Shown here one piece after another: positions 11,041 through 48,691 of a stretch of 64,000 nucleotides of DNA. Origin of the DNA: Deltaproteobacteria bacterium (GTDB lineage Bacteria; Myxococcota_A; Polyangia; HGW-17); contig JAFGWM010000032.1 in the NCBI GenBank assembly GCA_016937155.1, forward strand, positions 107,422-171,421, in the 5' to 3' direction. The stretch's first letter is position 1; every line of letters begins with the position of its first letter. The position numbers and the translations under genes were made by a program. Under the pieces are notes generated by a model. The model searched no databases. It saw only the letters and a program-made list of their open reading frames with translations, and was not told the DNA's origin.

Positions 11041-11225
11041 ATCAGATCTCCTGCCACTTTATGGAAATTTTTTCCAAAATTCAGTTCAGATTCAGTAAAA
11101 TTAAGAATGGAAAACCTGTTAGTTTACAGGTGGTGTCCATAAATAAGGGATAATGTACCCATGTTTTTTTCTTAAATCCACCAAAATGATTACTTTTATG
11201 GAATAACATTGAGTAGACATCAGTT

Positions 11226-21784: not shown

Positions 21785-22990
21785 ATGATGGTAAATATGA
21801 AGTTATCCAAATATATGAGAAACATTGAGCATGCATTTTTTAAAATGAAGATAAATGATGTGGAAAATCCACATAGAAATCACCCTCTTCATGACAGTGC
21901 AACGGTTTTTTCCTATGAACAGGAAAGATTTCATATTGCTGTTACATTTGACGGTGTCAGTGAGTCCAGAGAAAAGGATCGGGATCTTGTAAATATCAGC
22001 AGAGAGCTGGAATGGGATATTGAAGCTTTTTGCAGAAAAACATCTCCGGAAGATATTCATGATATTGCAGACTGGTTTAAGGAAAATGTGGAAAATGAGA
22101 AATACAAAAACCTTGGTGCTACAACGATTAGTCTTCTGAGATATGATTTTTTAACGAATACAGTTGATGGTATATGCGTAGGTGATTCTCCAGCTCTACT
22201 TTGCAGAAGTGTAAATAAAAACGGTGGTGAAATAATTGAAGCTCAGATACTGAGTGCTTTTCATAGTGTTGCAAACGATCCTGGTATTATAACAAGGCAA
22301 TGGAGATATGGTCAGCCTCTTGAGTTGACAGTATTTTCCACTCCCGCTCCGGATGAATTTGAAAGTCTTTTTCTGGTAACTCTCAGTGATGGCTATGGTA
22401 AATTATCTGATTCAGATGTTGTAAGATTTGTGGACGATGATCTGCAGGATTCTATGGTGTCAATGTTTTATCCTGATTTTGCCAGGGTTTATCTTCCGGA
22501 AAAGATAACTTCAAAATTTCCCCACCTGATTGTTGATTCTGAAGGTAGTGTATCTTTTTCTCAGGTCAGTTGTGATTCTGAAATCAGAAGCTATCTATCT
22601 GAAATATATGGTGAATTAACACTGGAAGAGAAAAGAAAAGCAGCAATGGTGGATCTTGATACTGCTGCTCTTTATGATTTATATAAAAATCCATCTGATT
22701 TTAGAACACCGGATGGCAGTGATGCAGATGCAGTTCTTTCAAGATCTCATCCATCACTTGCCTGGATGCTTGGAGCCCCATACAATGATGCTAAGGATGA
22801 ATCAGGTCTTGATGATTACCTTAGAGAATACATTATAGCTGAATTATTTGTAGTTTCCATGCTGGAAGAGCTTTATTTTGAAACAGGTGATTCTCAATGC
22901 AGTCTACAAAAAAAATTGAAAAATTTTTTTGATAGTCTTGATCCTGTAGGTGATGATTTTAGTGTAGCACTTATGAAAATAAGCAGGTAA
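21785..22990 (+). CDS. PP2C-family (SpoIIE-like) serine/threonine phosphatase domain protein with a roughly 150-aa C-terminal region of unknown function.
   Basis: PP2C-like motifs FHIAVTFDGVSESRE (DGxxG region), GATTISLL, ICVGDSPALL and LVTLSDGYGKLSD, in the expected order. Confidence 0.5.
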   Translation: MMVNMKLSKYMRNIEHAFFKMKINDVENPHRNHPLHDSATVFSYEQERFHIAVTFDGVSESREKDRDLVNISRELEWDIEAFCRKTSPEDIHDIADWFKENVENEKYKNLGATTISLLRYDFLTNTVDGICVGDSPALLCRSVNKNGGEIIEAQILSAFHSVANDPGIITRQWRYGQPLELTVFSTPAPDEFESLFLVTLSDGYGKLSDSDVVRFVDDDLQDSMVSMFYPDFARVYLPEKITSKFPHLIVDSEGSVSFSQVSCDSEIRSYLSEIYGELTLEEKRKAAMVDLDTAALYDLYKNPSDFRTPDGSDADAVLSRSHPSLAWMLGAPYNDAKDESGLDDYLREYIIAELFVVSMLEELYFETGDSQCSLQKKLKNFFDSLDPVGDDFSVALMKISR

Positions 22991-30209: not shown

Positions 30210-30584
30210 ATGAGGTTGAGTATGAGTGATAAAATGCTGAGTCAATTTCCATTTGATAGAAGAAAAGAAAAAAGAATTCCGATAGTAGTCAGTGTTATTG
30301 AGCGAAATTCCTCCGGAAAAATAATTTGTCTGGCAACGGATATCAGTTTTTCCGGGATGGCTTTGAAAAGAGCAGGAGATAGTCTTCACGAAAACAGAGT
30401 TGTTTTGGAATTTTCACTTCCTGGAATAGGAGATGTGTTAAAAATTCCTTCAACTCTGATAAGGGTTGATGAAAATGAAGGAACAAAACAGCAAAGTGTT
30501 GCAGTTTTCGATTGTGTTCCCTCTTATCTGAAAGAGTGGATTGATACTTTTTCGAGATTTTCCGGAATTGCCTATATGACATGA
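30210..30584 (+). CDS. PilZ-domain (c-di-GMP-binding) protein. The likely start is the ATG at 30222, which has a GAGG RBS.
   Basis: RxxxR motif (DRRKEKR) near the N-terminus and a DxSxxG motif (DISFSGMAL). Confidence 0.55.
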   Translation: MRLSMSDKMLSQFPFDRRKEKRIPIVVSVIERNSSGKIICLATDISFSGMALKRAGDSLHENRVVLEFSLPGIGDVLKIPSTLIRVDENEGTKQQSVAVFDCVPSYLKEWIDTFSRFSGIAYMT

Positions 30585-30696: not shown

Positions 30697-31809
30697 ATGT
30701 TTCAAAAATCAAGGATATTGTCTGTAGCAGCTCTTTTACTCATGACCTTTATTTTTGCATCAGGCTGCAAAAAGAAGACACCCATAGCAAAAGAGGGTGA
30801 AAAATGCGGAAAAGATATTAAATGTGTAAAAGGCACGAAATGTTATTACGGAGTTTGTGAAGACTTGAGCGGTAATAACCCCGATTGCCAGTTTTTAGGG
30901 AAAGCTTCCAAGGCAATTATGGAGAGTAATCCCAAGGAACTACTCAAGGGAAAGAATTTTGACTATGATATTGATACTATTACAGCTATTCCCAGTGCGG
31001 CAGCAACCATATATAAAGCATTCGGTAATGGATTAAGCAAAACTCAGTGTAAAAGAATAACTCAGTGTGAACTTCCTAAACTTGGTGTTGGATACAGTTG
31101 GTACTGGACCAGATCTGTTTTCAATGAAACAAAGAAGGCTCCAGCGAATGCGAAAAAATTATCGGCGGATGCAGTTGAAATAATCAGTGTATCAGCTGAA
31201 CAGGCATCCATGGGTGAAGATCCCAAGATGTTCCCGCCCATTAAAATAAAACAGATGCAGCAGCATCGTATTGGTTGTCGTGCCAAAGTTAAAGTTCGTG
31301 TTAAAGAAGAATTTGCAGGATTTGTTACTTTCCATTTCTGGAAAAATAAAAACTGTAAATTTGTTGAAGCTGAAAAAGGAGTAAAAGACTCAAAAGCAGG
31401 CTTTAAATGTGATGGTGTTGAAAAACTTTCTCATCCCTACTACACATATACAACTTATCTTTATCCCTTCAAAAGCAATCAACTGGCAAAGGATAAAAAA
31501 TCAAAGGAGAAGGTAACTTATCTGACTGGAAATCCTGGAACCTATCTTATTGATGTATGGGCATATAATCCGATTGATGAAAACAAGTTTGGTGAACACA
31601 AACAGTTTGATTCTGAGGAAGTTATGAAGAAATATCCTGATCTTATCTACTGTCCCAAATACAGAACTGACCCCTTTAACAATGGTTGTGGATGTATTGG
31701 CTTTGCTAAAAATAAGGTAACAGTAACTGTAGATCCCGATCCTTTCTATCTTCCTCTTGATGAAGATAAATGTGCAAAAATGGCTCCTCAGAAGACTGAA
31801 TCGAAATAG
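30697..31809 (+). CDS. Cys-rich secreted lipoprotein, hypothetical (370 aa).
   Basis: Signal peptide plus lipobox (FASGC). Many Cys residues in the mature part. GGAGGAG RBS. No recognised domain. Confidence 0.5.
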   Translation: MFQKSRILSVAALLLMTFIFASGCKKKTPIAKEGEKCGKDIKCVKGTKCYYGVCEDLSGNNPDCQFLGKASKAIMESNPKELLKGKNFDYDIDTITAIPSAAATIYKAFGNGLSKTQCKRITQCELPKLGVGYSWYWTRSVFNETKKAPANAKKLSADAVEIISVSAEQASMGEDPKMFPPIKIKQMQQHRIGCRAKVKVRVKEEFAGFVTFHFWKNKNCKFVEAEKGVKDSKAGFKCDGVEKLSHPYYTYTTYLYPFKSNQLAKDKKSKEKVTYLTGNPGTYLIDVWAYNPIDENKFGEHKQFDSEEVMKKYPDLIYCPKYRTDPFNNGCGCIGFAKNKVTVTVDPDPFYLPLDEDKCAKMAPQKTESK

Positions 31810-31828: not shown

Positions 31829-33241
31829 TCAGTCGGAATAAAGAGTATTCAGTAAAAAATGTGAAAATTCGGGGTAGCTGCAGTATGCCTGCAGGAGTTC
31901 AATATGAAATGAATTTTTCATATTTATAATGAGTTTATTATATTTATCCGGGGGTTTACCGGTTATTCGTCCATCCCTTGTCTGGTAATAGTAAGGATTT
32001 CCATCATCAGGGAGGATTTCACCGGAAATAACCTGAATATTTTTAATATTTTTAATTTTCAGATTGTTATTTACCCAAGTCTCATATTTATTCCAGACAG
32101 GGTTAAATTCTTTCATTCTCAGTGTGTAAAAATTCAGTTTTTCAGGAAGAATCAGTTGGTATTCTTCAGATATTTTGCAGACGTTTCTGAGAATATCCAC
32201 CATGTGAGGAGATATAAAACTAATATTTATTCCATGGGTTGAAGGATTATCAACAGTGGCAAATTCCAGTTGTTTTTTGAGACATACTGAAATCTTTTGG
32301 GTGTTTCCCAATGACATTGGTATGAGTTGCTGTCTTTTAAGGTCATTAATATATCCGGCTTCTGTAAGTTTTATAAGATAAAAAAATGACGTTTTGTAGG
32401 ATTCTATACTTGAAATATTTTTGCTGAAACCAGACATTTGATGGAGAAATGATTCAATAAAATCATCAATAAAGTGCTGGAGTTCATTTTTAAGAGTATT
32501 TATTTCGATTGCAGAATCCATGGGTTTATCTGAAAAGAATCGGGATTTATCTATAGTTATCTCAAGATAGGGATAGACACTGCGGACTCTTTTCATAAAC
32601 ACACTGTTACACCTGAATCTTATCCATGTTTCCGGATTTGATTTTAAAGTAACTGATACATGATAGTTACTGTCAGTGTACGTTTTCCGGAGAAAGTTAA
32701 TTTCGTTTCTCAGGTGGGGTGAAATATGAACGCCGTTTAGATACACCGGTGTTTTAGAATATCCAAAATATGTTGATAAAAAATTCTGTAATTCCTCACG
32801 GGAAAAATCAATTTTTGCCCTCTCAATAATCAGGGTTACCATTGTACCATCATGGTCGTGGTTATTCTCTGAAACTGTCCAGTGAAAATCGCTGTAAATA
32901 TTAAGAGTTAGAGAAGTATCCAGATATCTTGTATTTAAAATCAACTGTTTGAAGGGGGTAATAAGGATATTAAAAAAACCATATCCATCACCATCACACA
33001 TAAAACTTTTTTCAAAAGGTAGGGATTCTTCTGAATCCAGAAGAAGTCTTTTGATATTTTCAAGAGATATACCGGTTCCGTAATCCGAGACGGATACAAT
33101 TATCAACTCAGGAGTGAAATCAACTTCAACATCTACCCTCTGGGAAAAGGATTTACATCCATTTAATACAAGATGTTTTATGAAATCCATATGTTCAGTA
33201 CTTTTTTTCTTTGAAATATTTTCAGAAGAAAATTTATTCAT
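31829..33241 (-). CDS. Hypothetical protein with an N-terminal GHKL/HATPase_c-like ATP-binding fold (470 aa). Gene 4 of the four-gene operon.
   Basis: N-box-like ..KHLVLNGCKS.., G1-box-like ..IIVSVSDYGTGISLENIKRL.. and G2-box-like ..CDGDGYGFF.., in Bergerat-fold order. The start overlaps the upstream gene's stop by 8 nt. Confidence 0.45.
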   Translation of the reverse strand: MNKFSSENISKKKSTEHMDFIKHLVLNGCKSFSQRVDVEVDFTPELIIVSVSDYGTGISLENIKRLLLDSEESLPFEKSFMCDGDGYGFFNILITPFKQLILNTRYLDTSLTLNIYSDFHWTVSENNHDHDGTMVTLIIERAKIDFSREELQNFLSTYFGYSKTPVYLNGVHISPHLRNEINFLRKTYTDSNYHVSVTLKSNPETWIRFRCNSVFMKRVRSVYPYLEITIDKSRFFSDKPMDSAIEINTLKNELQHFIDDFIESFLHQMSGFSKNISSIESYKTSFFYLIKLTEAGYINDLKRQQLIPMSLGNTQKISVCLKKQLEFATVDNPSTHGINISFISPHMVDILRNVCKISEEYQLILPEKLNFYTLRMKEFNPVWNKYETWVNNNLKIKNIKNIQVISGEILPDDGNPYYYQTRDGRITGKPPDKYNKLIINMKNSFHIELLQAYCSYPEFSHFLLNTLYSD

Positions 33242-34877
33242 ATCCTTCTTCCATCAGAAGTTTTCGTGCATTCAGTTCAATAATAATCTGCTCCTTCATG
33301 AAATTTGTTTTTTCCTGGATTTCATGCTCACCAGCCAGAACCTTAAACTGATAAAATGATGATAATTCATCAGAAACTATTTTCTCGTCGATTTTTATTC
33401 GGTTTTCTCTGACCAGGGCCACTCTCTGATCATAACTTGATTTAAAAAATCCATCAGGCCAGTCGAAATCCTCCATAGTTCCAATAAGTCTTCTGCAAAT
33501 ATTTGCAACATCTCTACCGGAAAGACTGTATTCAATACACTGTTTTCCTATTTTATCCCATGATTCATCACTCAATTGCAGAGAAGGGAAATATTCCTTT
33601 CCAAGTAAAATGTCTCTTATCAGATAAATATAGTCTTCAGGAGTTTCAGGGCCTTTGACAGTATGGGGTGATTGAGAAAGACGTGAAATTGTAGCCTCAT
33701 CCATTTGCATATAATTAGCATCACAGATAAGAGCCCATTGTCCATTGAAGGGAAGGACAGTCCCATCAAAAAGACCAAATGCTGTTCCCAGAATACTTTT
33801 TTCTTCTTCTCTGAGTTCACCGGATGATCTTGACGAAAAAGCAGTATCAATATCCGGCCAGTAGTAAATGACAACTCCGTTGTAATCACGAAGTTGACTT
33901 TCAAAACGTTCAAGAAGTGCAGTGGCGCTTGCATTCTGGTAACTGCTGGCCCAGTCAGTTCTTCTGATGGTTACAAATCTGCTTTCCAGACCTGCTTCAT
34001 CAGCCTTTTCCAGAAGGTAATTCCCCAGAGCATTTGCAGTGACTGTTTTTCCGCAACCTGGTCTGCCAAGTCCGAAAAGTATCTGATTAAATTTTTTAGG
34101 ATTTTTTCCAGTTGAAGGATCAAATCCTGTAAGGTCTCTAACCAGTTTTACTCCAGCATCCAGATATTCTCTGTTTCCAATGATATCAGTTATTGCCACA
34201 TTGAGTATATTCTCAGAACCTGAAATTTTATGCACTGTTGAAAATGGAGTGAAACAGTAATCTTCATAGTCTATTTTCAATTCCTTTAACTTGCGGTTTG
34301 AAGAAATGTTCCTGGGATCTCCTGATATCAACTCAATGCTGTCAGATAGAAGATGAAAATATCCACATACGGCTTTTTCCATCTCATATATGTTCGAAAT
34401 TCTGTCCTTTTTTAAAAATAAAACCAGATCTTTACATATTGAGGAGTGTATTTCATTGTTACCGAACAACTCTTTTACTTCTGCCGGTTTAAATGTATTT
34501 TTTGTCCTGACTGAAAACCGGGTTATTTCATCAAGTTTATTACTGCCCCATCTTGATGAACAGCCTATTCCAAATAATATACTGCTCCAGGTTTTTTCTC
34601 CTGAATAATCATCCGCAAAAGAAATCAGGGTGCTGGTGATTGCCAAAATTCTTTCTATAATACCAATAAGCTGCAGAGTATGTTCTCCAGTACCCCATGG
34701 ACTTTTTTCAATCTCATTGAATATCCTGTTTAACCCTGATTCTTTTATTGCATCCCGGACTTCATCAATGATTATTTCGAGATGCTCATCTTTTATTTGA
34801 TAATGGTGTGAAATCATGTTTCCCCTGTGAGTGGATAATATGACAATGCGGGAATTCCTTATGGAAATGTCTTTCAA
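33234..34877 (-). CDS. P-loop NTPase (547 aa, Walker A in the middle). Gene 3 of the four-gene operon. The start is either 34877 or the internal ATG at 34817; both overlap gene 2.
   Basis: Walker A ..LFGLGRPGCGKTVTANALG.. and a candidate Walker B ..GVVIYYWPDIDTAF.. The roughly 260-aa N-terminal region is unknown. Confidence 0.5.
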   Translation of the reverse strand: MKDISIRNSRIVILSTHRGNMISHHYQIKDEHLEIIIDEVRDAIKESGLNRIFNEIEKSPWGTGEHTLQLIGIIERILAITSTLISFADDYSGEKTWSSILFGIGCSSRWGSNKLDEITRFSVRTKNTFKPAEVKELFGNNEIHSSICKDLVLFLKKDRISNIYEMEKAVCGYFHLLSDSIELISGDPRNISSNRKLKELKIDYEDYCFTPFSTVHKISGSENILNVAITDIIGNREYLDAGVKLVRDLTGFDPSTGKNPKKFNQILFGLGRPGCGKTVTANALGNYLLEKADEAGLESRFVTIRRTDWASSYQNASATALLERFESQLRDYNGVVIYYWPDIDTAFSSRSSGELREEEKSILGTAFGLFDGTVLPFNGQWALICDANYMQMDEATISRLSQSPHTVKGPETPEDYIYLIRDILLGKEYFPSLQLSDESWDKIGKQCIEYSLSGRDVANICRRLIGTMEDFDWPDGFFKSSYDQRVALVRENRIKIDEKIVSDELSSFYQFKVLAGEHEIQEKTNFMKEQIIIELNARKLLMEEGYE

Positions 34878-35751
34878 ATGTCATATTATCATTTCCAGTT
34901 ATGCTTAATCTTCGTTCATTGAAAAGAGCATAATTTTTCAACTTACGCTCCTGTCTGAAAATTTCCTGGGTTGATTTTGAATAATATTCGTCAGAATTGT
35001 GAATAAATGGATCCCTTAAAATATTATTTTTTTGATCCTTTATAGCCATTTCCAATGGTAAGTGCAGAACTGAAAGTTTTTCTGTGTTACCAAATTCGTA
35101 ATCTGATATTCTCATGTTTTCATCTGTAAGGGGACCGATCTGAGCTCTGGAAATTTGTTTTACTTTAAAATTATCGTTTGCTCCCAGGGAAAGCATGGCT
35201 ATTTCACTGTTTCCCTGACAGGAAATACAGATGATATTCTTAAGGTTTTCTGATGGAATCAATATATCACAATTGGAAAAGTAATGAGAATTACAGGGAA
35301 GTTCCATACTCACTGTATATCTTGTGTAAAGTTCATGTGAAAGACTGTACCTGTCAAGTATCACCAATATTTCAACAACAAATTTTGTAGTGTTCCTGAT
35401 GGGTATCAATTCAAAATTTAACCTGGAGGGAATATCCAGAGAAAGAAGTCCCGATACAAAACTGTCACTCCTCCAGTGGTCAGGAAAAGTTCCTGATTGA
35501 AAACCAGAGTTGAAAGTAGATTTGTAATTATTTAATCTTGTAACTTCTTTACCTGATGGAAGATTCGATTTTGAGTCAAAAGAAATTATAGAGTTATCAA
35601 ATGAACTGTTATCCAGTAATAGGATTTCAAGCATATTCAAAAAGCGGATAATTTCAGGGTAATATCTGCTGAGTTTTAAATTTTCAGTGAGACGGTATAA
35701 CACAGATAGATGATTTTTTTTTTTCTGACTTTCAAGTGTCAGTAGCGACAT
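34786..35751 (-). CDS. Hypothetical protein (321 aa). Gene 2 of the four-gene operon. Carries an A11 tract at codons 9-13.
   Basis: The ATG lies 1 nt after the gene 1 stop. No recognised motif. N-terminus MSLLTLESQKKKNH is encoded by cag-A11-t. Confidence 0.45.
   Translation of the reverse strand: MSLLTLESQKKKNHLSVLYRLTENLKLSRYYPEIIRFLNMLEILLLDNSSFDNSIISFDSKSNLPSGKEVTRLNNYKSTFNSGFQSGTFPDHWRSDSFVSGLLSLDIPSRLNFELIPIRNTTKFVVEILVILDRYSLSHELYTRYTVSMELPCNSHYFSNCDILIPSENLKNIICISCQGNSEIAMLSLGANDNFKVKQISRAQIGPLTDENMRISDYEFGNTEKLSVLHLPLEMAIKDQKNNILRDPFIHNSDEYYSKSTQEIFRQERKLKNYALFNERRLSITGNDNMTFERHFHKEFPHCHIIHSQGKHDFTPLSNKR
35714..35724 (-). repeat. Homopolymeric A11 (T11 on the plus strand) within the first 13 codons of the 34786-35751 gene. 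The longest mononucleotide run I found in the window.
   Basis: Plus strand reads gatga-ttttttttttt-ctgac. Other A/T runs in the window are 10 or fewer. Confidence 0.9.
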
Positions 35752-35752
35752 T

Positions 35753-36829
35753 TCAGATGGCTTCCTCAGTTTCAGATTTGGATTTTTCCATTTTTACTTT
35801 TTCAATAATCTGCTCAAGCTGTTGTTTTCTCAGTTGACGCTCCTGAGCAAGATTGTTTTCAACGACATCTTCTGTCTGCTGATCATAAACTCTCATATTA
35901 TCAGTTATACTTTCAACATTTTTAGTGAGAAACAGAGATGTTTCTGATGCTATCTGAGCAACTTTACTCATATTATCCTTAAGGGTTTCCATAGATTGAG
36001 TCAGTTCCAGAGTAAGTTCTCCTGCTTCCGCAAGTGTTGCAATTGCTGTTACATGCTGTCTGAGTTCATCAAGAACCATTTCAGCAGTTTCGCGAATTAT
36101 AGTCATATTGCCGTGAAGATTTACGCTTATTTCCAGAAAGTTACTATTCATCCTGATGATACTCTGAAGTCTGTCCTGAGCATTATTGAAAAGTCTGAGA
36201 CGCTGGCCATTTTCCCAGATTAGATTTTCAAGTTTTCCAATCTCAAGATCCAGAGCACGAAATTCTTCAGAATTTTTATCATCAATAGTTTCGGTTTCAG
36301 CCTTTATTTCAGCAAGATGATTCTGAAGATCCTCGATCAGAGTGAATGTTAATTTTCTGTTTTTAGCTGCATCAAGAAGTTTTTCACGGAGTATCTCCTG
36401 ATCCTGCCGAAGACTTTTCATAGCCTCCTCAACTTTTTTAAGATAAGTGTCTACTTCTCTGGTTCTTTTATCAGCTGATTCAACTCTTTCCTCCAGAAGA
36501 TCTCCTAGAGGTTTTTCTCTGAATGGTCTGCCTACAAGTGGAATCTTTCCCAGAATACCTCTGAATCCTCTGGAAACAGATCCTTTCTTTCCAGAGGTCA
36601 TGGTTCTGATTTCATCCATCATTGTTCTCTGTTTTGCGAGTTCTTCATTCATCTCACCGGCGAGTTTATCATGTTCATTTTTTAAGGATTTTAGATCACT
36701 AACATGATTTTCATGTCTGTTTCTATAGGTTGATACAAGATCTTTGACACCTTCTCTGGTATAGTTTTTTCCATCATATTCCACAGTTTTCTTTTCAAAT
36801 TCAGCTGTTTTGTCCTGAATGGTGCTCAT
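35753..36829 (-). CDS. Coiled-coil protein (358 aa), tentatively TelA (toxic anion resistance)-like. Gene 1 of the four-gene operon.
   Basis: Predicted helical, heptad-rich sequence along its whole length (..LAEIKAETETIDDKNSEEFRALDLEIGKLENLIWENGQRL..TLAEAGELTLELTQSMETLKDNMSKV..). The TelA assignment is from recollection of the overall architecture, not a motif match. Confidence 0.4.
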   Translation of the reverse strand: MSTIQDKTAEFEKKTVEYDGKNYTREGVKDLVSTYRNRHENHVSDLKSLKNEHDKLAGEMNEELAKQRTMMDEIRTMTSGKKGSVSRGFRGILGKIPLVGRPFREKPLGDLLEERVESADKRTREVDTYLKKVEEAMKSLRQDQEILREKLLDAAKNRKLTFTLIEDLQNHLAEIKAETETIDDKNSEEFRALDLEIGKLENLIWENGQRLRLFNNAQDRLQSIIRMNSNFLEISVNLHGNMTIIRETAEMVLDELRQHVTAIATLAEAGELTLELTQSMETLKDNMSKVAQIASETSLFLTKNVESITDNMRVYDQQTEDVVENNLAQERQLRKQQLEQIIEKVKMEKSKSETEEAI

Positions 36830-36917
36830 GTTTATATCTCCTTATAAATCAGTAATACGGATTTAATGAAAAAACAACTTATCAGTCAATAACTGTTGAA
36901 TAAAATATATGGAATCT

Positions 36918-36934
36918 ATGGTTTTCAGAACCAT
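36918..36934. promoter_or_regulatory. Inverted repeat ATGGTT-ttcag-AACCAT, a candidate operator, followed by a perfect TTGACA hexamer. Lies between the four-gene operon and the divergent ArsR-family gene.
   Basis: The 6-bp arms are perfect reverse complements. TTGACA is at 36935-36940. Roughly 20-50 bp upstream of the arsR-like start. Confidence 0.3.
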
Positions 36935-36952
36935 TGACAAAACAGTTTTTCA

Positions 36953-37270
36953 ATGGCTCCATATGTACAAGGAAATTATAAAATGAGTAATTTTGATTAT
37001 CTGGACTCCCAGTCTGCTGTTTTTAAGGCTCTTGGACATTCAGTAAGGTTGTATATTGTGATTCTTCTGAATGAAAAAGACTACTGTGTGCAGGAGATAA
37101 CTGAAAAAATTGGGTATGACATATCTACCATCTCAAGACATCTAACCATTCTTAAATCAACAGGAATTGTTGAATCCCGAAAAGAAGGAAATTGTATTTA
37201 CTATAGTCTGAAGGCACACTGTGTAATAGGTTTTTTAAAGTGTTTGTCAGGAATTGCCATGGACAGATAA
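36953..37270 (+). CDS. ArsR/SmtB-family HTH transcriptional regulator. The likely true start is the ATG at 36983.
   Basis: ..AVFKALGHSVRLYIVILLNEKDYCVQEITEKIGYDISTISRHLTILKSTGIVESRKEGNCIYYSL.. is the canonical ArsR winged-helix pattern. Confidence 0.7.
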   Translation: MAPYVQGNYKMSNFDYLDSQSAVFKALGHSVRLYIVILLNEKDYCVQEITEKIGYDISTISRHLTILKSTGIVESRKEGNCIYYSLKAHCVIGFLKCLSGIAMDR

Positions 37271-37465: not shown

Positions 37466-37954
37466 GTGAATTATATCGAGAGAGGTTTCACAATGAACGC
37501 AGAATTTGCAATTGTTGACAGTATTGTTGAACAGACTGGAAAGGGTCAGGAAATGGCTATCCCGATACTCCAGAAAATTCAGGAGCATTTCAGATATCTA
37601 CCCATGGGTGCTCTGGAAAGAGTGTGTGAGGTTTCTGATATTACCCCTTCCCAGTTATATGGTGTAGCCACCTTCTACAGCCAGTTCAGGCTGCAGCCGG
37701 TTGGAGATATAATTATCAAGGTGTGTCATGGTACAGCATGCCATGTTGGTGGTGCCAAGACTCTTACTGAGACACTTGAAGATCATTTTGGTGTCAAGGA
37801 CGGAGAGACTACTCCTGATATGAAGTTTACTATCGAAAGTGTTGCGTGTGTGGGTTGTTGCTCTTTGGCCCCTGTTGTGGTGGTTGGAAGTGATACTTTC
37901 GGAAAACTGACGCCTAAAAAACTAGTTGAAACAATTGAAAAATATATAGAATAA
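37466..37954 (+). CDS. NuoE/HndA-like [2Fe-2S] thioredoxin-fold subunit (NADH dehydrogenase 24 kDa family). The likely start is the ATG at 37493.
   Basis: Cys motifs ..CHGTACHVGGA.. and ..CVGCCSLAPVVVVG.. Confidence 0.85.
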   Translation: MNYIERGFTMNAEFAIVDSIVEQTGKGQEMAIPILQKIQEHFRYLPMGALERVCEVSDITPSQLYGVATFYSQFRLQPVGDIIIKVCHGTACHVGGAKTLTETLEDHFGVKDGETTPDMKFTIESVACVGCCSLAPVVVVGSDTFGKLTPKKLVETIEKYIE

Positions 37955-37976
37955 TTAAAACTTCTGGAGGTAACCC

Positions 37977-39773
37977 ATGGTCCAACCGAAAATAAACAGT
38001 CCCAAAATAGTGGTGGGGCTCGGAACCTGCGGAATTGCTGCCGGTGCTGAGAACATATATAACGTCCTGAAAAGAAATTTGGATGAGAACCCTGAAATAA
38101 AAATAGAACTTGCCATTACCGGTTGCAACGGAATGTGTCACCGGGAGCCATTGGTGGAATTCCATGATGCCAATGGAAATAAATTCCTTTATGGTGATCT
38201 TACTGAAAAAAAAGTGCAACTGGTTTTTGATAATCATTTTGTTTCAGGAAAAGTAATGGATAAGTTTCTTCTGCATGAAGAAAATCCGGAAACAAAAGCA
38301 GGCAAATATCTACACAAACAGAGAAGAATAGTACTGAGAAACTGCGGTATTATTGATCCTGAGTCGATTGAACAGTACATTGACAATGGTGGTTACGAAG
38401 GTTTAAAAAAAGCTATTGAAAAAGGCAGTGACTGGATAATTGATGAGGTTAAACAATCCGGATTAAGAGGTCGTGGTGGTGCAGGGTTTTCCACAGGTCT
38501 GAAGTGGATGTTTACAAAAAATGAAAACAGAGAAAAAAAATATCTGGTCTGCAATGCTGATGAGGGAGATCCCGGTGCTTTCATGGACAGAAGTGTACTT
38601 GAAGGAGATCCCCACAGTGTGATTGAAGGAATGGCCATATGCGCTGTGGCAACTGGAGCAAACTTTGGATATATTTACTGTAGAGCCGAATATCCCCTCG
38701 CAGTAAAAAGATTGAAGCATGCGATAAGTCAGGCGGAAGAAAGGAATATTCTCGGAGAAAATATTTTTGGTTCCGGTCATTCCTTGAAATTGAAGGTAAA
38801 AGAAGGAGCAGGGGCTTTTGTGTGTGGAGAAGAAACGGCTCTTATGGCCTCTATTGAAGGTAAAAGAGGTATGCCAAGACCAAGACCTCCATTTCCTGCT
38901 CAGAGTGGATTATGGGGAAATCCCACAAATATCAACAATGTTGAGACCTTTGCTAATATACCATGGATTATTTCAAACGGTGGAAGCGAATATGCCAGTG
39001 TGGGAACAGAAAAGAGTAAGGGCTCAAAAGTGTTCGCACTTGCAGGAAAAGTAGCCCGTGGGGGACTGGTTGAAGTTCCAATGGGTATGACGATCAGGGA
39101 AGTGGTTGAGGATATAGCAGGAGGCTCCAGTACAGGCAGACCTATTAAAGCTGTCCAGATGGGTGGACCAAGTGGTGGCTGTATTCCTGCTGATCTTTTT
39201 GATACCAGAATTGATTATGATGAGGTAAATAAAACCGGTGCTATTATGGGAAGCGGCGGTATGGTTGTTATGGATGAGACAACCTGTATGGTTGATGTAA
39301 GTAAATTCTTCCTGAATTTCACTAAGAATGAGAGTTGTGGAAAATGTACTTTCTGCAGGATAGGAACAACCAGAATGCTTGAAATTCTGGAGCGCATCAC
39401 AGCAGGCAAAGCAGTGATGGAAGATCTTGACATGCTGGAAGAACTTTCTCACAAGATTAAAACAACAAGTCTGTGTGGTCTCGGGCAGACTGCACCTAAC
39501 CCGGTTCTCACAACCCTGAAGTATTTCAGACATGAATATGAAGCTCATATCAAGGAACACAAGTGTCCTGCAGGTGTTTGTAAAGATCTTACCACCTTTG
39601 AAATTAACAGTGAAAAATGTACCGGATGTAATGCATGCCTTATTAACTGTCCTGTGAAAGCTATTGAGGGTGAGAGGGGTCGTGCAGGAACTTTTTCCAT
39701 TATGCAGGATTCGTGTATTAAATGCGGTGTCTGTAGAGACGTATGCCGATTTGATGCTGTTTTTACAAGATAG
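37977..39773 (+). CDS. NuoF/HndC-like NADH-binding flavoprotein subunit with an N-terminal HndB-like 2Fe-2S domain and C-terminal 2x[4Fe-4S] ferredoxin domain.
   Basis: ..[16 protein letters not shown].. (FMN/NADH site), ..[13 protein letters not shown].. (N3 cluster), C-terminal ..[12 protein letters not shown].. and ..[11 protein letters not shown].., and an N-terminal ..[19 protein letters not shown].. Confidence 0.9.
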
Positions 39774-39792
39774 AGAATGCTGGAGGTAAACT

Positions 39793-41886
39793 GTGGATAA
39801 TAAAATTACTGTAATAATTGATGGAACAGAAATTCAGGCTGAGCCAGGATCCACCGTTCTTCAGGCAGCCAGAAGTGCCGGAATAAATATTCCAACTTTT
39901 TGTTATCTTGAAAGAATGGAGCCTTTTGCATCCTGTTTTATGTGCGTAGTAAGAATCAAAGGCGGAAGAGATAATCTGGTTCCTTCATGTTCAACTCCTG
40001 TTTTCAACGGAATGGAGGTTGAAACTCAGACGGAAGAAATATTAAATGCACGACGTGCTGCTCTGGAACTTATGCTTTCTGATCACACAGGTGATTGCTT
40101 TGCTCCATGTCATAGTGAGTGTCCCACGGGAGTTGATATTCCCGGGTTCATTAATGCTCTGCAAATAAAAGACAATGAAAAAGCCATTAGCATTATAAAA
40201 GAATCACTTCCCATACCGGGTTGTCTTGGTAGAGTTTGTCCCGCTCCATGTGAGTCTGCATGTAGAAGAACTCTGGTGGACGAAAGTGTTTCCATAATGT
40301 CCCTGAAGAGATATGCAGCTGATGAAGACATGAAGAAAGATGAAAAGCACAGATATTTTCCTGAGATGGCTTCACCAAGCGGGAAGAGTGTTGCAGTTGT
40401 TGGAGCCGGTCCTGCCGGGATAAGTGCTGCCTATTTCTCAAAAATACTTGGACACGAAGTTGATGTATTTGATTCTCATGCAGCTCCTGGTGGTATGATC
40501 AGATACGGAATTCCATCATACAGATTACCCAGAAATGTAATTGATTCCGAAGTTGATGTTCTTGTTAGAATGGGTATTAACTTCAACTATGGAAAAACAA
40601 TGGGCTCAAACTTCACTCTTGATGAGCTCCGTGAAAAATATGATGCAGTATTTCTTGGTCTTGGAGCTCAGGATGCTTCTCCAATGAGGGTTGACGGTGA
40701 AGATGCTGAAGGAGTGTTCAGTGCAATTAAGTTTCTTGAAGAAGTTTCAGCTGGAACCAGAACCGGAATCGGAAAAAAAGTAATGATTGTGGGTGGTGGT
40801 AACAGTGCTATTGACGCTGCCAGAACGGCTGTAAGACTTGATGCAGAAGAATCAGTAATATATTATCGCCGTACACGTGAGGAAATGCCGGCTTTTGATT
40901 TTGAAATCGATGAAGCTATTGATGACGGGGTCAAAATGGAATTTCTTAGTGCTCCTGTTAAAATTCAGCGCCAGGGTGAAAAACTTGCTGTCAGTTGTAT
41001 CAGGATGGAACTGGGTGAACCGGATTCAAGTGGACGAAGACGACCTGTACCCGTTGAAGGTTCAGAACATACAGTTTTTGTCGATGCTGTAATAGCTGCT
41101 ATTGGTCAAAAAGTTGCCCGAAAAGGAATAGAAGGAACTGAACTGGAGCTTTCAAAATGGGGTACTATTGAGGTTGATAATAATACCCTCATGACAAGTA
41201 TTCCTGGTGTATTCTCTGGTGGTGACAGTGTTCTTGGTCCAGACATTGCTGTTCGAGCAAGTGGAATGGGAAAACTTGCTGCTGTTTCTATGAATCAATA
41301 TCTTAATAATCTCCCTGTTACAGGCAGCAAAAAGCTTTTCAAGGTTGTAATGGGTGGTCTGGAAGATATCCAAAAGGCGGTATATGAAAGATTTGAAGAA
41401 TCTCCAAGGGCAAAGATGGCTCATATTGAGTCTTCTGTGGCTATAAAATCCTTTGATGAAGTCAGTCTTGGTTTTACAGCCCGTCAGGTTGAAGAAGAAA
41501 CAGCAAGATGTATGGAGTGTGGATGCCGCGCTGCAGACAGCTGTAAGCTTCGTGAATATTCAGAGGAGTTTTCGGTAAGAGATGACTATTTTGCTACTGA
41601 AACAAAAAGACCTGTCTATTATGATGACTCACATAAGGACATTATTCTGGAGTCAAATAAGTGTATTACCTGTGGAAACTGTGTGAGAATATGTGAAGAA
41701 GATCGTAAGTGTTATGCTCTGGCATTTGAAAAGCGTGGTTTTCAGACAGTTATTCGTCCTCCTCTTCAGAAAAAACTATCTGAAACTTCATGTGATGGCT
41801 GTGGAAAATGTGTTGATGACTGCCCAACAGGCGCTCTCAGTTATAAAACAGCACCTGTCTGGACTGAAGTTATTAGAAAAATCTAA
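39793..41886 (+). CDS. Fusion protein: an N-terminal NuoG-like 2Fe-2S/4Fe-4S ferredoxin module joined to a GltD-like (glutamate synthase small-subunit family) FAD/NAD(P)H oxidoreductase, with C-terminal Cys clusters. Probable third subunit of an Nfn/Bfu-like NADH-ferredoxin-NADP(H) oxidoreductase.
   Basis: N-terminal ..IDGTEIQAEPGSTVLQAARSAGINIPTFCY..ASCFMCVV.. A dinucleotide-binding ..VAVVGAGPAGISAAYF..HAAPGGMIRYGIPSYRLP.., a second ..VMIVGGGNSAIDAA.., then ..CMECGCRAADSC.. and ..CITCGNC..CDGCGKCVDDCP. GTG start with a GGAGG RBS. Confidence 0.75.
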   Translation: MDNKITVIIDGTEIQAEPGSTVLQAARSAGINIPTFCYLERMEPFASCFMCVVRIKGGRDNLVPSCSTPVFNGMEVETQTEEILNARRAALELMLSDHTGDCFAPCHSECPTGVDIPGFINALQIKDNEKAISIIKESLPIPGCLGRVCPAPCESACRRTLVDESVSIMSLKRYAADEDMKKDEKHRYFPEMASPSGKSVAVVGAGPAGISAAYFSKILGHEVDVFDSHAAPGGMIRYGIPSYRLPRNVIDSEVDVLVRMGINFNYGKTMGSNFTLDELREKYDAVFLGLGAQDASPMRVDGEDAEGVFSAIKFLEEVSAGTRTGIGKKVMIVGGGNSAIDAARTAVRLDAEESVIYYRRTREEMPAFDFEIDEAIDDGVKMEFLSAPVKIQRQGEKLAVSCIRMELGEPDSSGRRRPVPVEGSEHTVFVDAVIAAIGQKVARKGIEGTELELSKWGTIEVDNNTLMTSIPGVFSGGDSVLGPDIAVRASGMGKLAAVSMNQYLNNLPVTGSKKLFKVVMGGLEDIQKAVYERFEESPRAKMAHIESSVAIKSFDEVSLGFTARQVEEETARCMECGCRAADSCKLREYSEEFSVRDDYFATETKRPVYYDDSHKDIILESNKCITCGNCVRICEEDRKCYALAFEKRGFQTVIRPPLQKKLSETSCDGCGKCVDDCPTGALSYKTAPVWTEVIRKI

Positions 41887-44489: not shown

Positions 44490-46625
44490 ATGATATATTT
44501 AGTCAGGCTTTTTAAACATGAAGTTTCCCTGATATTTAAAAGTCCCGGATATTATTTTGTTGCAGCACTGTTTTTATTTTATCAGGGTATAATTTTTTCG
44601 CTTACGTTATCATTAAGGCATCACCCCCTTTCTCCTCCCGGACCTATGTTTGCTCCCTGGTTTGCAGGTCCATTCTGGTTCTGGCCATTGTTGATTCTGG
44701 TAGTTGTTGAATTATCACATAATTCCATATCCGGTGAGAGGCAGCAGGGAACAATGGATGTTCTTTTATCAACCGGTGCTTCCTCTGGCATGATTATTCT
44801 ATCAAAGTATCTTGCTCTGCTTACAGCGTTTATTTTTCTATGGATAACCACAGTTCCTCTTGTCATTCTTTTTCTTCTCTACCTGCCTCAGGATATCAAA
44901 ATAAGGATGTGGCCAGTTTATACAGGTTATCTTGGTTCAGTATGTATTGGAGGAACAGGTCTCGCCATAGGTATGCTTTTTTCTACAATAACCAAAGATA
45001 CCCGATTGAGTGCCATGTTCACCTTTATGGTACTTTTTTTACTTGTTTTAGTTAAAATAATAATTCATCCGGGTCTGGGTATTGTGGAGTCTTCTTTTCT
45101 GAGAGAAATTGCAAAATTTAATTTCCTTGATTTTATGGAAAATTTTGCAAGAGGAAAAATTGTAATAAACCATATTATAACTATCCTGATAATTATAGTT
45201 GGGTCTCTTGGTATAAGTTCCATTATTCTTGGAAAAAATCAGACAAGAAAAATAGGATATAAATTTGTCACATTAGGTCTGGTGGTTCTTCTTATTGCTG
45301 AGTCAGGTATTTTATATGGGAAAAATCAGAAATATTTCAATGAAAAATCTACTATTCATCCAGTTTTAAGACAAAGAATTTCACAACTTGACGATGAACT
45401 AAAAATATATATTTTTGCCAAGGGTCCTTCTTCAAGCCTTTATTTTCATCCAATTCCTTTTTTGGAATCAGCTCTGGAGAATATTTCTTCTCATTCAGGA
45501 AAAGTGATATGGGAACGTCCGGAAATTACATCTTCAAATAAAAAACTGTTCCATCTGGCCAGACTTTTTTCTCTTGATGTAAACAGGATAAGAAATGATG
45601 CAACAGCCCTTTCAGAAGGTGTAATGGTTGTAGCTTATGGTGATGATTTCAGGAATATTAAACTTTCTTCAATTTTTACAGCTGATGTAAGGGATGGAAG
45701 AATCAGTTTTTCTGGTATGAGACTTGAAGCTGAACTTTCAAGTGCAATATCAACTCTAATAAGTCCTTCAAAAAAAAGAATCTGTTTTTCAACAGGACAT
45801 GAGGAAAAATCTATTCTTGACAGTTCTCCTTCAGGTTTTTCCAGAATCAGCATATTTTTAAAAAGGGTTGGCTATAGTGTTGAAGCTTTGCCTCCTGTTA
45901 TAAAGCCACCTGACTCCAGATGTGCACTTCTGATTATCAGTGCTCCGGAAAAAGATTTTCTGCCATCTGAAATTGAAAATCTTAATAAATGGATTATATC
46001 CGGTGGGCAAACCATCGTAATGACTGCTCCCCAGACTGTAAAACTAAAAAATTTCTGGAGATGGCTCAATTCTGCTGGAGTTACAGTATCAGGATATTTT
46101 GTAGGGGATAAAAAATTCAGTGTGGGAAAAAGTCAGGGAACAGTATGGGCAGGTAAACCTGATGTTTCCACAGGTTTATCATCAGGAAGACTTATTTTGC
46201 AGACACCTCTACAGATTGTATGTGAAAATAACTGTGAATCCCTGATTGAAACTTCGTCTGCGGGGTATTTATACAAGCTTGATTCTAGTAAATATGAAAC
46301 TGCAAAAGGTGTTTTTACAACAGCAGTTGTGAAAAAGTTTTCAGAATCCAGACTTACAGTACTTGGTTTTTACACTCCCTGGACAAATAATTTTATTTCA
46401 GTTACAGGTGAATCAAGAGATAATTCACTGGATTTTTTAGAAGGAATTATTAAACGAAGTTTCAATGAGGAACGGGAAAATATTTCTTCAACTAAAATAG
46501 TTCACCATCACCTGACTCTCAGGGCATCAGAGATTTCTTCAATTCAATACTTTGCGCTTTTAATCAATCCTTTACTGATGCTGTTTTTCGGGATCTGGAT
46601 TGTTTTGAGGAGACGACGATTTTGA
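44490..46625 (+). CDS. ABC-2 type permease (GldF-like, roughly the first 240 aa) fused to a large GldG-like extracytoplasmic domain with a C-terminal TM anchor.
   Basis: N-terminal 6-TM ABC-2 permease pattern, then a roughly 450-aa soluble region, then a terminal TM ..YFALLINPLLMLFFGIWIVLRRRRF. Directly downstream of the ABC ATPase. Confidence 0.6.
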   Translation: MIYLVRLFKHEVSLIFKSPGYYFVAALFLFYQGIIFSLTLSLRHHPLSPPGPMFAPWFAGPFWFWPLLILVVVELSHNSISGERQQGTMDVLLSTGASSGMIILSKYLALLTAFIFLWITTVPLVILFLLYLPQDIKIRMWPVYTGYLGSVCIGGTGLAIGMLFSTITKDTRLSAMFTFMVLFLLVLVKIIIHPGLGIVESSFLREIAKFNFLDFMENFARGKIVINHIITILIIIVGSLGISSIILGKNQTRKIGYKFVTLGLVVLLIAESGILYGKNQKYFNEKSTIHPVLRQRISQLDDELKIYIFAKGPSSSLYFHPIPFLESALENISSHSGKVIWERPEITSSNKKLFHLARLFSLDVNRIRNDATALSEGVMVVAYGDDFRNIKLSSIFTADVRDGRISFSGMRLEAELSSAISTLISPSKKRICFSTGHEEKSILDSSPSGFSRISIFLKRVGYSVEALPPVIKPPDSRCALLIISAPEKDFLPSEIENLNKWIISGGQTIVMTAPQTVKLKNFWRWLNSAGVTVSGYFVGDKKFSVGKSQGTVWAGKPDVSTGLSSGRLILQTPLQIVCENNCESLIETSSAGYLYKLDSSKYETAKGVFTTAVVKKFSESRLTVLGFYTPWTNNFISVTGESRDNSLDFLEGIIKRSFNEERENISSTKIVHHHLTLRASEISSIQYFALLINPLLMLFFGIWIVLRRRRF

Positions 46626-48691
46626 AAAAGGAAAATCAGTTAAAATTAAGTTCAACCCTGATATCTCCTCAGGAGAAACTGGTAAGTCCGGTAAGAATAA
46701 TTCTCGCTGCTGCAGTGTTTGTGATAACTCTGATTATTATTTTTTCGGGATCTGAACAAAAATCTACGGGAATAAAAATTTTTTCGGGAATTGAAAAAAT
46801 AAATGCTCTGGAATTTCAAAGTGATAATAAAAAATATAAAATCATCAAAAGAAAAAATTTACACTGGGTTGTAAGTAATTGGAAATCATATGATGTTGAA
46901 GCACTCGATGAACATATTGTTGAGTATTTTTTAAAACTTTCCAGATTAAAGGGACATTTGCATTCAGGTAGCAGTGGAAAAAAATGTTTCACTCTAAAAT
47001 TTTTCATCAAAAATCTATCGAAAAATGTTGATTTTTCGCAAGAAAACAGGGACCTCATTATTTCAACAGAAGGTAAAAATTTTATAATAAAAAATCACGA
47101 TTGTATGTCTTATTTATTAAAGGTTGAAAATATTGCGGATAAATCTGTTTTGAAAAATGCGGGTATAATAAAAAAACTGGTTTTGAATGTTGCTACTGCA
47201 GCTGGAAACAGAAATTATAGCGTATACAGAAAAAGTAATCTCTGGACAATTGGTGAAAAAAAAACAATACCGGTAAAAACAGAATTTATTGAAAAATACA
47301 TAAAAAATCTAAAGAATATTTCCTTCACTGAATTTCTTGATGAAAAAAAAATCAGGACAAAAAAGATTCTTTCCTTTGAAACAGAGAACAATATGAACTG
47401 GGAACTATTCGAGGGCAATAGCAAGAGTTGTCAGGTGGGAGAGATGATTCTCTCATTATCTGTAAATTCCAGTGATAAAGGTTCAGGATGTGTTTCTAAA
47501 ACTATTTTCAATTCAATAAAGGTGGATCTTCCTTCAATTATGGAAGATGCTCTTATTCCTGGTGGTACAAAAAACCAATGGAAAAAACTTGTTTTTTCAA
47601 GAGGTAACAGCAGTTATACTCTTACTGAGAAGGACAGAAAGTGGGATCTCAGAGCAGGTGGTAAGATTTACCCAGGAGACTTCATTTCAATAGAAGAATG
47701 GCTTGCCAGACTGAAAAAAATCAGAATTATAGCACCTGAAAAACCGTTATCATGTGAACCTTCATGGAATATTCTGCTAAACGGAACCAAATATGACTGG
47801 AAACTTGAAGGTTGTTCTGATGAAAGCGGATTTTATATAGTGCGAAACAGTGAATATGAAAGTGTGAAGGTTAATATCAGAGAGAAATTTCTTTTTGAAT
47901 TTTTATGGAATCATTTTGTTTCAAGGGATCTTCTTGATGACTCTCCTCTCGCCAGTGTTGAAAGAAAATTTAAAATAAAGAAGGAAAAATATATACTTAC
48001 AGAAAGAGGAAAGATTTCAATAGAGTCTCCTCTGGATGTTCCTTTTGAAAAAGAAAAACTCACCGAAAAAATAAGCAGACTGAAAAATTTAAGGGCTGAA
48101 GGTTTTTTGGATAAAAAACCAGTAGAAGAACTATCCAGTGATTATATTCTAATTCTTAAGTATCATTCTGGAAAAAAACTTAAGATAGAGTTTTTTAATA
48201 AAGGATTGTATTGTTTTATAAATAAAAAATGGTTCAAAATGAAGGGAGAGGACAAATTCTGGATATATACTCCATGGTGTTCTGAAAAAATTATTCCATG
48301 GAAAGTCAGTGAAACAGTAAAACTGATATTTTCTAAAAACAATAAAATAACAGAAAGTTATCAAAATACTGGAACTCACTGGATTCATGTATCATCGGGA
48401 AAAACTAAAATCATTACTTCAGATGCTATGGATATCAATCTTAAAAGGCTTTCAGGAATGTTTACATCATTAATGGTTGAAAAATATACAGGTAAATTCA
48501 GTGGTGAATATGCGCTGGATCTTTTTTCTCCATCGGGGCTTCATTTTAAAATTTATCTTAATTCTGATTCTTCAGGTCGCATAGATTTACAGAACCCAAC
48601 ATATGGAATAAAATACTCTTTTAAAGTAACAGAAAGAAATAAAAATTTTATTACTGAAAAATTATTACCCCAATCAGGGAAGATTCCCTGA
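46622..48691 (+). CDS. N-terminally membrane-anchored hypothetical protein (689 aa). Its position after the GldFG-like genes suggests the DUF4340-type partner.
   Basis: A single N-terminal TM (..RIILAAAVFVITLIIIFSG..). K/N-rich low-complexity body. ATGA-type overlap with the upstream gene. The DUF4340 assignment is contextual only. Confidence 0.4.
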   Translation: MKKENQLKLSSTLISPQEKLVSPVRIILAAAVFVITLIIIFSGSEQKSTGIKIFSGIEKINALEFQSDNKKYKIIKRKNLHWVVSNWKSYDVEALDEHIVEYFLKLSRLKGHLHSGSSGKKCFTLKFFIKNLSKNVDFSQENRDLIISTEGKNFIIKNHDCMSYLLKVENIADKSVLKNAGIIKKLVLNVATAAGNRNYSVYRKSNLWTIGEKKTIPVKTEFIEKYIKNLKNISFTEFLDEKKIRTKKILSFETENNMNWELFEGNSKSCQVGEMILSLSVNSSDKGSGCVSKTIFNSIKVDLPSIMEDALIPGGTKNQWKKLVFSRGNSSYTLTEKDRKWDLRAGGKIYPGDFISIEEWLARLKKIRIIAPEKPLSCEPSWNILLNGTKYDWKLEGCSDESGFYIVRNSEYESVKVNIREKFLFEFLWNHFVSRDLLDDSPLASVERKFKIKKEKYILTERGKISIESPLDVPFEKEKLTEKISRLKNLRAEGFLDKKPVEELSSDYILILKYHSGKKLKIEFFNKGLYCFINKKWFKMKGEDKFWIYTPWCSEKIIPWKVSETVKLIFSKNNKITESYQNTGTHWIHVSSGKTKIITSDAMDINLKRLSGMFTSLMVEKYTGKFSGEYALDLFSPSGLHFKIYLNSDSSGRIDLQNPTYGIKYSFKVTERNKNFITEKLLPQSGKIP

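Follow-up and report, generated by a model that had tools for sequence, protein, structure and literature searches.

AAA+ ATPases that belong to the classical clade (FtsH/FtsHi, Cdc48/p97, Mpa/ARC, Rix7/NVL, Msp1, NSF-D2, Vps4, and spastin) share the Walker A motif GxPGCGKT, a canonical Walker B (hhhhDE), the sensor-1 Asn, the Arg of the second region of homology (SRH), and the lid motif SGRD. In the Vps4/ESCRT-III and NSF/alpha-SNAP/SNARE systems, such ATPases power the remodeling of helical polymers. The Hsp90/HtpG/TRAP1 proteins and sacsin carry a Bergerat-fold N-terminal domain with the N-box, G1, G2, and DGT motifs, and the ClyA-type pore-forming toxins (ClyA, XaxA/YaxA, AhlB/C, SmhB, NheA, Hbl-B, and Cry6Aa) are elongated antiparallel helical bundles of ~350 amino acids (aa). 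Here, a locus of a Deltaproteobacteria bacterium (assembly GCA_016937155.1) is compared with these systems. It lies in a stretch of 64,000 nucleotides (nt) of contig JAFGWM010000032.1 (positions 107,422–171,421, forward strand), the whole of which is called the window, and consists of four minus-strand genes, named g1 to g4 in their order of transcription. They constitute a multi-phylum, uncharacterized module, well supported as an operon and centered on a AAA+ ATPase, for which a role in protein remodeling is proposed.

In the literature searched, including the comparative-genomics papers PMC11237479 and PMC7159879, no description of the g1–g4 gene set was found, nor of any conserved operon in which a classical AAA+ motor is paired with an Hsp90/sacsin-like GHKL protein. 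The ATPase domains of g3 and g4 belong to known superfamilies, and g1 and g2 to no family of Pfam, NCBIfam, or the PDB. A first-pass annotation of the window, made from the sequence alone, had recognized a conserved unit with a GHKL protein that fits no named system; these parts of it hold, and none fits in PADLOC, Pfam, NCBIfam, or the literature searched. Its TelA-like and MORC/MutL-like assignments, its control of the operon by an ArsR regulator, and its view of the locus as an inserted defense module are not supported, and this framing is corrected here together with one gene start.

Gene structure and conservation of the operon

The first gene of the operon, g1 (35753–36829), encodes a 358-aa all-helical bundle protein. 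It is followed by g2 (34786–35751), which lies between g1 and g3 and encodes a 321-aa orphan protein, by g3 (33234–34817, with the start corrected as below), encoding a 527-aa ATPase assigned to the classical AAA+ clade, and by g4 (31829–33241), encoding a 470-aa protein of apparent Hsp90/sacsin-like GHKL type. The respective GenBank entries are MBN2723588-85, located on a contig of 299,738 bp from a metagenome-assembled genome. In them, the products of g1 and g2 are labeled as hypothetical, that of g3 as “AAA family ATPase” (527 aa), and that of g4 as “ATP-binding protein”. Each of the four has homologs, and all are real genes; the minus-strand open reading frames (ORFs) listed at first pass were recovered with the same coordinates and lengths. 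All four proteins are predicted to be soluble.

In the case of g3, the longest ORF (33234–34877, 547 aa) opens with a TTG at 34877 that has no ribosome-binding site, whereas the ATG at 34817 has an upstream AGGGGA Shine-Dalgarno sequence and fits the N-termini of the 36 homologs aligned as well as the start called by NCBI. This ATG is almost certainly the start, so the protein has 527 aa and the overlap of g2 and g3 is 32 nt, not the 92 nt that had been read from the wrong start codon. The other two junctions had been described correctly, with a gap of 1 nt between g1 and g2 and an overlap of 8 nt between g3 and g4. Motifs resembling a Shine-Dalgarno sequence are found at each of the four starts, and g1 has a strong AAGGAG.

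For the comparison across genomes, 43 Myxococcota loci were collected from a scan of the GTDB species representatives and nine more from a g1-seeded metagenome scan. The order g1-g2-g3 is kept in every non-redundant locus with g1 and enough sequence (16 loci), and in all nine metagenome loci g1 is followed by g2 and then by g3 wherever the contig allows. In no locus was g1 found without g2 directly after it. Carriers of g1-g2-g3 are members of Myxococcota, Vulcanimicrobiota, and others. In detail, the complete set is present in the Myxococcota loci L001, L003, L011, and L013–L017 and also in L052, and L005 of Vulcanimicrobiota as well as L053 have g1-g2-g3 without g4. The co-linear unit supposed at first pass, i.e., g1-g2-g3 with or without g4, is thus confirmed to recur in many genomes of more than one phylum.

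The architectures were tallied over 47 non-redundant g3 loci. The full four-gene set occurs in 11, three have g1-g2-g3 with g4 absent, and in two more with g1-g2-g3 the presence of g4 is undecidable at the contig end. Four loci (L007–L010) carry g2-g3-g4 behind unrelated upstream genes, 23 have g3 alone, and the contigs of the remaining four are too short for classification. The gene g4 follows in most loci, decays in some, and is absent from one lineage. No fifth gene family common to the operon loci was found. Solo g3 orthologs, with partners sought near g3 only, were recorded in L018–L049 (Nannocystis, Enhygromyxa, and metagenome-assembled genomes of Polyangia), L050, and L051. In a rough neighbor-joining tree, a single Nannocystaceae/Polyangia branch holds nearly all of the solo-g3 loci, and L051 of Eremiobacterota is placed outside it.

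The operon is co-linear, tightly coupled, vertically inherited, and chromosomal. By tblastn, g3 and g1 had no homolog among 72,556 plasmids, a search of 50,697 phage records with g3 was likewise empty, and the g3 and g1 alignments matched none of the IMG/VR viral contigs. The locus itself shows no tRNA, integrase, or bounding repeat, apart from short chance repeats, and the guanine-cytosine content of the operon is only slightly below that of its neighbors. These empty searches, along with the syntenic flanks described below, give no support to the notion of an inserted accessory module or of a defense island.

The rates of evolution differ strongly within the operon, with g1 as the slowest-evolving member and g2 and g4 evolving much faster than g1 and g3. 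For instance, the identities to the window proteins (taken from the family alignments where BLAST gave no alignment) are 71% for g1, 50% for g3, 29% for g2, and 26% for g4 in L001. The respective values are 51%, 39%, 18%, and 16% in L003, and in L005, where g4 is absent, 38% for g1, 36% for g3, and 22% for g2. Between phyla, orthologs of g1 retain 33–38% identity and the AAA core of g3 53–71%. With 38% for g1 and about 55% for this core, both are among the most constrained sequences of the locus, even though g1 has no family assignment.

The four proteins and their relatives

The product of g3 passes the Pfam AAA cutoff (28.1 vs. 21.2 bits) and belongs to a large family, with over 490 full-length members that are 530–590 aa long. 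Its motifs were analyzed in an alignment of 37 sequences (the g3 of the window and 36 homologs). Walker A (GxPGCGKT), sensor-1 (CDAN), the SRH arginine, the SGRD lid, and a pore-loop-like SSYQNAS are all invariant, and the Walker A GRPGCGKT picked out at first pass is among them. With a single AAA module and these Walker A, sensor-1, SRH, and lid elements, g3 resembles the ATPases of the classical clade. On the contrary, the canonical Walker B hhhhDE is missing. At residues 315–330 an invariant YWPDIDTAF..R (37/37 sequences) is aligned to the classical FIDEIDAL..R (hhhhDEIDAL..R), with Pro at the position of the Walker B Asp and Asp at that of the catalytic Glu. Judged by its motifs, g3 is a divergent classical-clade AAA+ ATPase with a non-canonical Walker B, and its invariant Pro-Asp in place of Asp-Glu constitutes a natural experiment in AAA+ catalysis.

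There are further differences from the classical clade. Pore loop 1 reads YQN and not aromatic-hydrophobic-Gly, a protease, MIT, or double-psi-barrel domain is lacking, and a unique helical N-domain of ~180 residues and a C-terminal helix of ~50 residues are added. In the AlphaFold2 model (predicted local distance difference test, pLDDT, 81), the N-terminal helical domain spans residues ~1–180, the AAA core with the lid ~215–450, and the C-terminal helix 478–526. The family is so divergent that its profile matches no PDB chain at an expectation (E) value ≤1e-3. The Pfam scan gave no match to the MIT domain, and the resemblance to Vps4 is no greater than that to FtsH, p97, or Mpa. In comparison with the conserved core, the N-domain is only 9–32% identical across phyla and is least alignable in the clade without neighboring g1 and g2, where it shows ~10% identity to the operon type.

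For g1, 17 close relatives were found in addition to the cross-phylum orthologs. The family shows invariant polar motifs (NLHxNM, VLDELR, SxTSLxLTxNV, and YD), and the loop between helices at residues 79–107 is conserved and basic (eight K/R), with many Gly and Pro residues, but not hydrophobic. In the AlphaFold2 model (pLDDT 69; predicted template-modeling score 0.53), long helices are packed antiparallel into a bundle. A TelA/KlaA-like character had been suggested at first pass; it is not supported by the sequence, as at E ≤ 10 not one of the 16 family members examined is matched by TelA (PF05816) or by the Pfam profiles PspA_IM30 and Snf7. The g1 profiles found no meaningful relative in the PDB and no ESCRT-III, PspA, or Vipp1 chain at E ≤ 10, and the fold search returned none of these three either.

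By two fold-search methods, the best natural structural matches of g1 are toxins of the ClyA type, without significance. In detail, Foldseek ranks AhlC, SmhB, ClyA, XaxA, YaxA, AhlB, NheA, and Hbl-B with E ≥ 4e-3 and template-modeling (TM) scores ≤0.58. The length of g1 is similar to that of this family, and its modeled bundle may be as well. On the other side, g1 shares no sequence similarity with ClyA-family chains, has no hydrophobic head, no beta-tongue, and no partner toxin subunit, and is very strongly conserved across phyla, unlike toxins. It contains no hydrophobic segment (Kyte-Doolittle maximum 0.75 over 19 residues) and hence lacks the membrane-insertion element by which the toxin family is defined. 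The “ClyA-like topology” of the model is therefore regarded as a lead and not as family membership.

The orthologs of g2 hold the same position in 18 operon loci. The protein has no match in Pfam, NCBIfam, or PADLOC, a profile of 13 sequences matches nothing in the PDB or Pfam, and hhalign gives no homology to g3 or g4 (probability <1%). The residues R134, E183, G206, P207, P232, and D247 are invariant.

The product of g4 is a near-orphan, with six relatives among 1.84 billion representatives in an exhaustive phmmer search; a word-indexed search matched g4 itself alone. The g4 of the window taken singly stays below the Pfam HATPase_c cutoff (18.8 vs. 26.4 bits). A family alignment of 17 sequences was built from the phmmer relatives and the genes that come after g3 in related loci, and several of its members show the canonical GHKL motifs ELVxNxxD, DYGxGM, GxGFA, and DGT. 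The Bergerat motifs proposed at first pass (HLVLNGC, SDYGTGIS, and GDGYGFF) find their counterparts in the N-box, G1, and G2 of these relatives, and D53, G57, and G88 are invariant or nearly so.

The GHKL fold itself was correctly recognized at first pass. The family profile matches the N-domains of HtpG/TRAP1/Hsp90 over ~135 residues with E ~3e-11, HATPase_c_3 is found in 9 of the 17 members (best 4e-10), and the ortholog in L052 passes the cutoffs of HATPase_c_3 (46.6 vs. 25 bits), SACS, HATPase_c, and the NCBIfam model NF047352 (“sacsin N-terminal ATP-binding-like domain”). Because of these matches, g4 is assigned by sequence to the GHKL/Bergerat-fold proteins with an affinity to Hsp90/sacsin, and not to MutL/MORC or histidine kinases. 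The MORC/MutL-like label is superseded, since the match of the profile to MutL chains (~3e-5) is far weaker. Neither does g4 score as a MutL, with MutL models giving 18–30 bits against cutoffs of at least 180, nor is it an ortholog of HtpG (NF003555, 33 vs. 371 bits; HSP90 family NF010683, 39 vs. 455 bits). It shares the N-terminal domain and its motifs with Hsp90 and sacsin and, unlike Hsp90, has no convincing middle or C-terminal domain: the Hsp90 middle-domain stretch reaches 7.8 bits only in the profile search, and the C-terminal ~300 residues are family-specific.

Hydrolysis by GHKL proteins needs a catalytic Glu four residues before the Asn of the N-box. In the g4 of the window, this Glu is replaced by His (KHLVLN) and the N-box Asp by Lys, and the closest relative has Gln for the Glu, which is present in the relatives P0140, P0142, P0143, and L052. 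Thus, the g4 of the window may bind ATP, with hydrolysis appearing unlikely from these residues. Members of the Haliangium/Kofleriaceae clade have lost both the N-box and G1.

Proposed function and alternative explanations

It is tentatively proposed, as a plausible reading that still falls short of being probable, that the operon encodes a dedicated cytoplasmic machine for ATP-driven protein remodeling, in which the g3 motor acts on g1 with g2 as an adaptor and g4 as an accessory. In this machine, g3 would be a hexamer-type, substrate-threading motor of the classical AAA+ kind, and its fast-evolving N-terminal helical domain would recognize g1, either directly or via g2. The g1 protein would be the working part or the client, with its oligomeric or conformational state switched by g3. 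An obligatory adaptor between the two is the role envisaged for g2, and g4 would serve as a dispensable Hsp90/sacsin-like GHKL clamp that holds or matures the client.

The firm basis of this proposal is formed by the gene identities at the fold level, the conserved order, the vertical inheritance, and the differences in rate. It is favored by g1 being the most conserved member, by the tight coupling of the genes and the solubility predicted for all four proteins, by a g3 core that is conserved next to a variable N-domain, by the Hsp90/sacsin-like nature of g4, by the housekeeping character and synteny of the flanks, and by the lack of homologs in the mobile elements searched. By analogy, the logic of the operon would resemble Vps4/ESCRT-III or NSF/SNAP/SNARE without homology to either. 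A helical-bundle protein is encoded together with a classical-clade AAA+ ATPase and a candidate adaptor, and ATP-driven disassembly of helical assemblies may be the common principle. The differences are that g1 has no homology to ESCRT-III or SNARE proteins, g2 has none to SNAP, and MIT and NSF-N domains are lacking.

Several points weigh against the remodeling machine. The four loci L007–L010 carry g2-g3-g4 without an adjacent g1, and in the solo-g3 loci of Nannocystaceae/Polyangia and in that of Eremiobacterota none of g1, g2, and g4 is nearby; judging from these solo loci, g3 is able to function in the absence of neighboring partners or to act on other clients. The absence of the canonical Walker B Asp-Glu means that robust hydrolysis or threading by g3 is not assured. 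The confidence of the g1 model is only moderate (pLDDT 69), and the fold of g2 is unmatched by profile search in the PDB and Pfam. Finally, how the proteins relate to one another, in which direction they act, and what they do in the cell is all inferred from the locus.

A bolder form of the proposal, to which a low probability is given, is that of an unrecognized ancient machine in which the non-canonical AAA+ ATPase and the sacsin/Hsp90-like clamp control the assembly of a protein with ClyA topology at the cytoplasmic membrane. If true, it would be the third independent case of AAA-powered remodeling of helical polymers after ESCRT-III/Vps4 and SNARE/NSF, and the pore-forming-toxin fold would have in g1 a relative that is cytoplasmic and serves housekeeping. 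If the four proteins do interact, the operon would provide a tractable bacterial model for the cooperation of a AAA+ motor with an Hsp90-like protein, for the function of the sacsin-type ATP-binding domain, and for a cytoplasmic protein of ClyA-like topology.

The same ranking of ClyA-type toxins for the g1 model suggests another explanation, namely a membrane-permeabilizing conflict system of the abortive-infection type, with g1 as a ClyA-like pore effector kept inactive in the cytoplasm, g2 and g4 as sensors of an invader, and g3 releasing or activating g1. The much faster evolution of g2 and g4 relative to g1 and g3 is the pattern expected of sensors, and myxobacteria, a group with abundant conflict systems (Kaur et al. 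2020, PMC7159879), make up many of the carriers. In addition, an ATP-binding GHKL segment is common to g4 and the defense proteins TmtA and MzaB. This explanation is nevertheless considered unlikely. The fold matches behind it are not significant (no Foldseek E ≤ 1e-3), the model is of the moderate confidence given above, and g1 has neither sequence similarity to ClyA-family chains nor the hydrophobic head or beta-tongue. The genes keep a housekeeping synteny across deep lineages, are absent from the plasmids, phages, and viral contigs searched, and include a g4 that is dispensable or decayed in whole clades.

PADLOC gives no matching system either. With PADLOC-DB v2, the window proteins yielded only a P-loop match to mad8 (E 0.005), and the matches of the orthologs were confined to ~90 aa in the GHKL segment of TmtA or MzaB. 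Membership in a known defense system was rejected on this ground, as the matches are at the domain level only and no component is matched over its full length.

The frequent occurrence of g3 alone fits a general remodeler and leads to a further alternative, in which the operon is a specialized chaperone set, consisting of a AAA+ unfoldase, an Hsp90-like protein, and two cofactors, with its client outside the operon. Candidate clients are a NuoE/NuoF/GltD-like flavoprotein complex, the genes of which are divergent from g1 in the window, L001, L013, L015, and L016, or the envelope and cell-shape machinery, as the operon of L052 adjoins mreB-mreC-PBP2. A precedent for a dedicated AAA+ chaperone is given by SpoVK, which is reported to act on MurG (PMC10659427). 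The neighbors vary by phylum, with rluB-dnaG-rpoD in L005, L052, L058, and L059 and enolase in L003, and no external partner is universal. Moreover, a mere cofactor would not usually head the operon in every case, as g1 does, nor surpass the ATPases in conservation, and the chaperone set appears improbable.

The dedicated remodeling machine is here compared with Vps4 and ESCRT-III by analogy only. Strict homology to ESCRT-III/Vps4 or to PspA-type membrane remodeling, or a stress module of the TelA type, is very unlikely. The general architecture, a helical hairpin protein with a classical-clade AAA, is the same, and associations of PspA/Snf7 with AAA+ proteins have been described in contexts other than the g1–g4 set (Ravi et al. 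2024, PMC11237479). At the level of homology this explanation is largely refuted by the sequence comparisons above, since the Snf7, PspA_IM30, and TelA profiles and the ESCRT-III, PspA, and Vipp1 chains of the PDB remain without a match in g1, and g3 has no MIT match and does not count Vps4 as a nearer relative than FtsH, p97, or Mpa. ESCRT-III/PspA with Vps4 was also rejected as a homologous pair for lack of a profile or fold match.

Mere synteny of four genes without a joint function would account for the loci in which g1 or g4 is missing or g3 stands alone, but it is hardly credible given that the order and the overlapping or near-abutting junctions persist across phyla at ~35% protein identity while the flanks change, and that g1 was never found without g2 directly after it.

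Flanking genes and minor observations

The flanks of the operon are housekeeping, lineage-specific, and syntenic. Both in the window and in L001, a TPR-Lgt-GltD-NuoF-NuoE cluster adjoins g1; in L013, L015, and L016 the genes found there are NuoE/F/GltD. The trio of NuoE-, NuoF-, and GltD-like flavoprotein genes lies at 37466–41886 on the plus strand of the window and at 1405–5877 of L001. Its divergent arrangement with g1 persists in five loci of Myxococcota, although their g1 proteins are only ~50% identical to one another. This synteny is deep, and a functional link of the trio to the operon is possible. Other g1 neighbors are the rluB-dnaG-rpoD and enolase genes already mentioned.

Between g1 and the NuoE/NuoF/GltD-like operon, and co-directional with the latter, there is an ArsR/SmtB metalloregulator gene (36953–37270, plus strand; NF033788, 79 bits). 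A divergent ArsR neighbor had been noted at first pass, and it is indeed present, with a 123-bp spacer to g1. Control of the operon by this regulator is not borne out: an ArsR-like ORF was found in 0/53 related loci, and the closest relative, L001, has the same NuoE-g1 junction without it. The spacer (36830–36952, 123 bp) is the leader and promoter region of g1, common to the divergent arsR, and contains a 17-nt palindrome, ATGGTTTTCAGAACCAT, at 36918–36934, ~19 nt upstream of the arsR ATG. This palindrome may be the operator of ArsR itself. Promoter-like hexamers occur on both strands at a frequency not above chance, the terminator scan gave a similar result against shuffled sequence, and the Rfam scan of the operon and leader returned no element.

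On the side of g4, the earlier description of phosphotransferase system (PTS) genes is roughly right, but HprK, RapZ, and PtsI lie beyond two other genes. The first, at 30697–31809 on the plus strand, is a Cys-rich lipoprotein-like ORF of 370 aa that converges on g4; it begins with a signal-peptide-like N-terminus followed by Cys and belongs to no Pfam or NCBIfam family. The second (30210–30584, plus strand) encodes a stand-alone PilZ-domain protein of 124 aa between HprK and the lipoprotein-like ORF. Elsewhere in the window, the ORFs at 19735–21036 (433 aa), 21785–22990 (401 aa), and 46622–48691 (689 aa) have no Pfam match at 1e-5. In L053, two genes downstream of g3, an ORF of 294 aa (10247–11131, plus strand) consists nearly throughout of Met/Gly/Asn/Pro repeats (MGGMGGMNPMGG) and encodes an unusual Met-rich protein of low complexity in a genome of 7.6 Mb.

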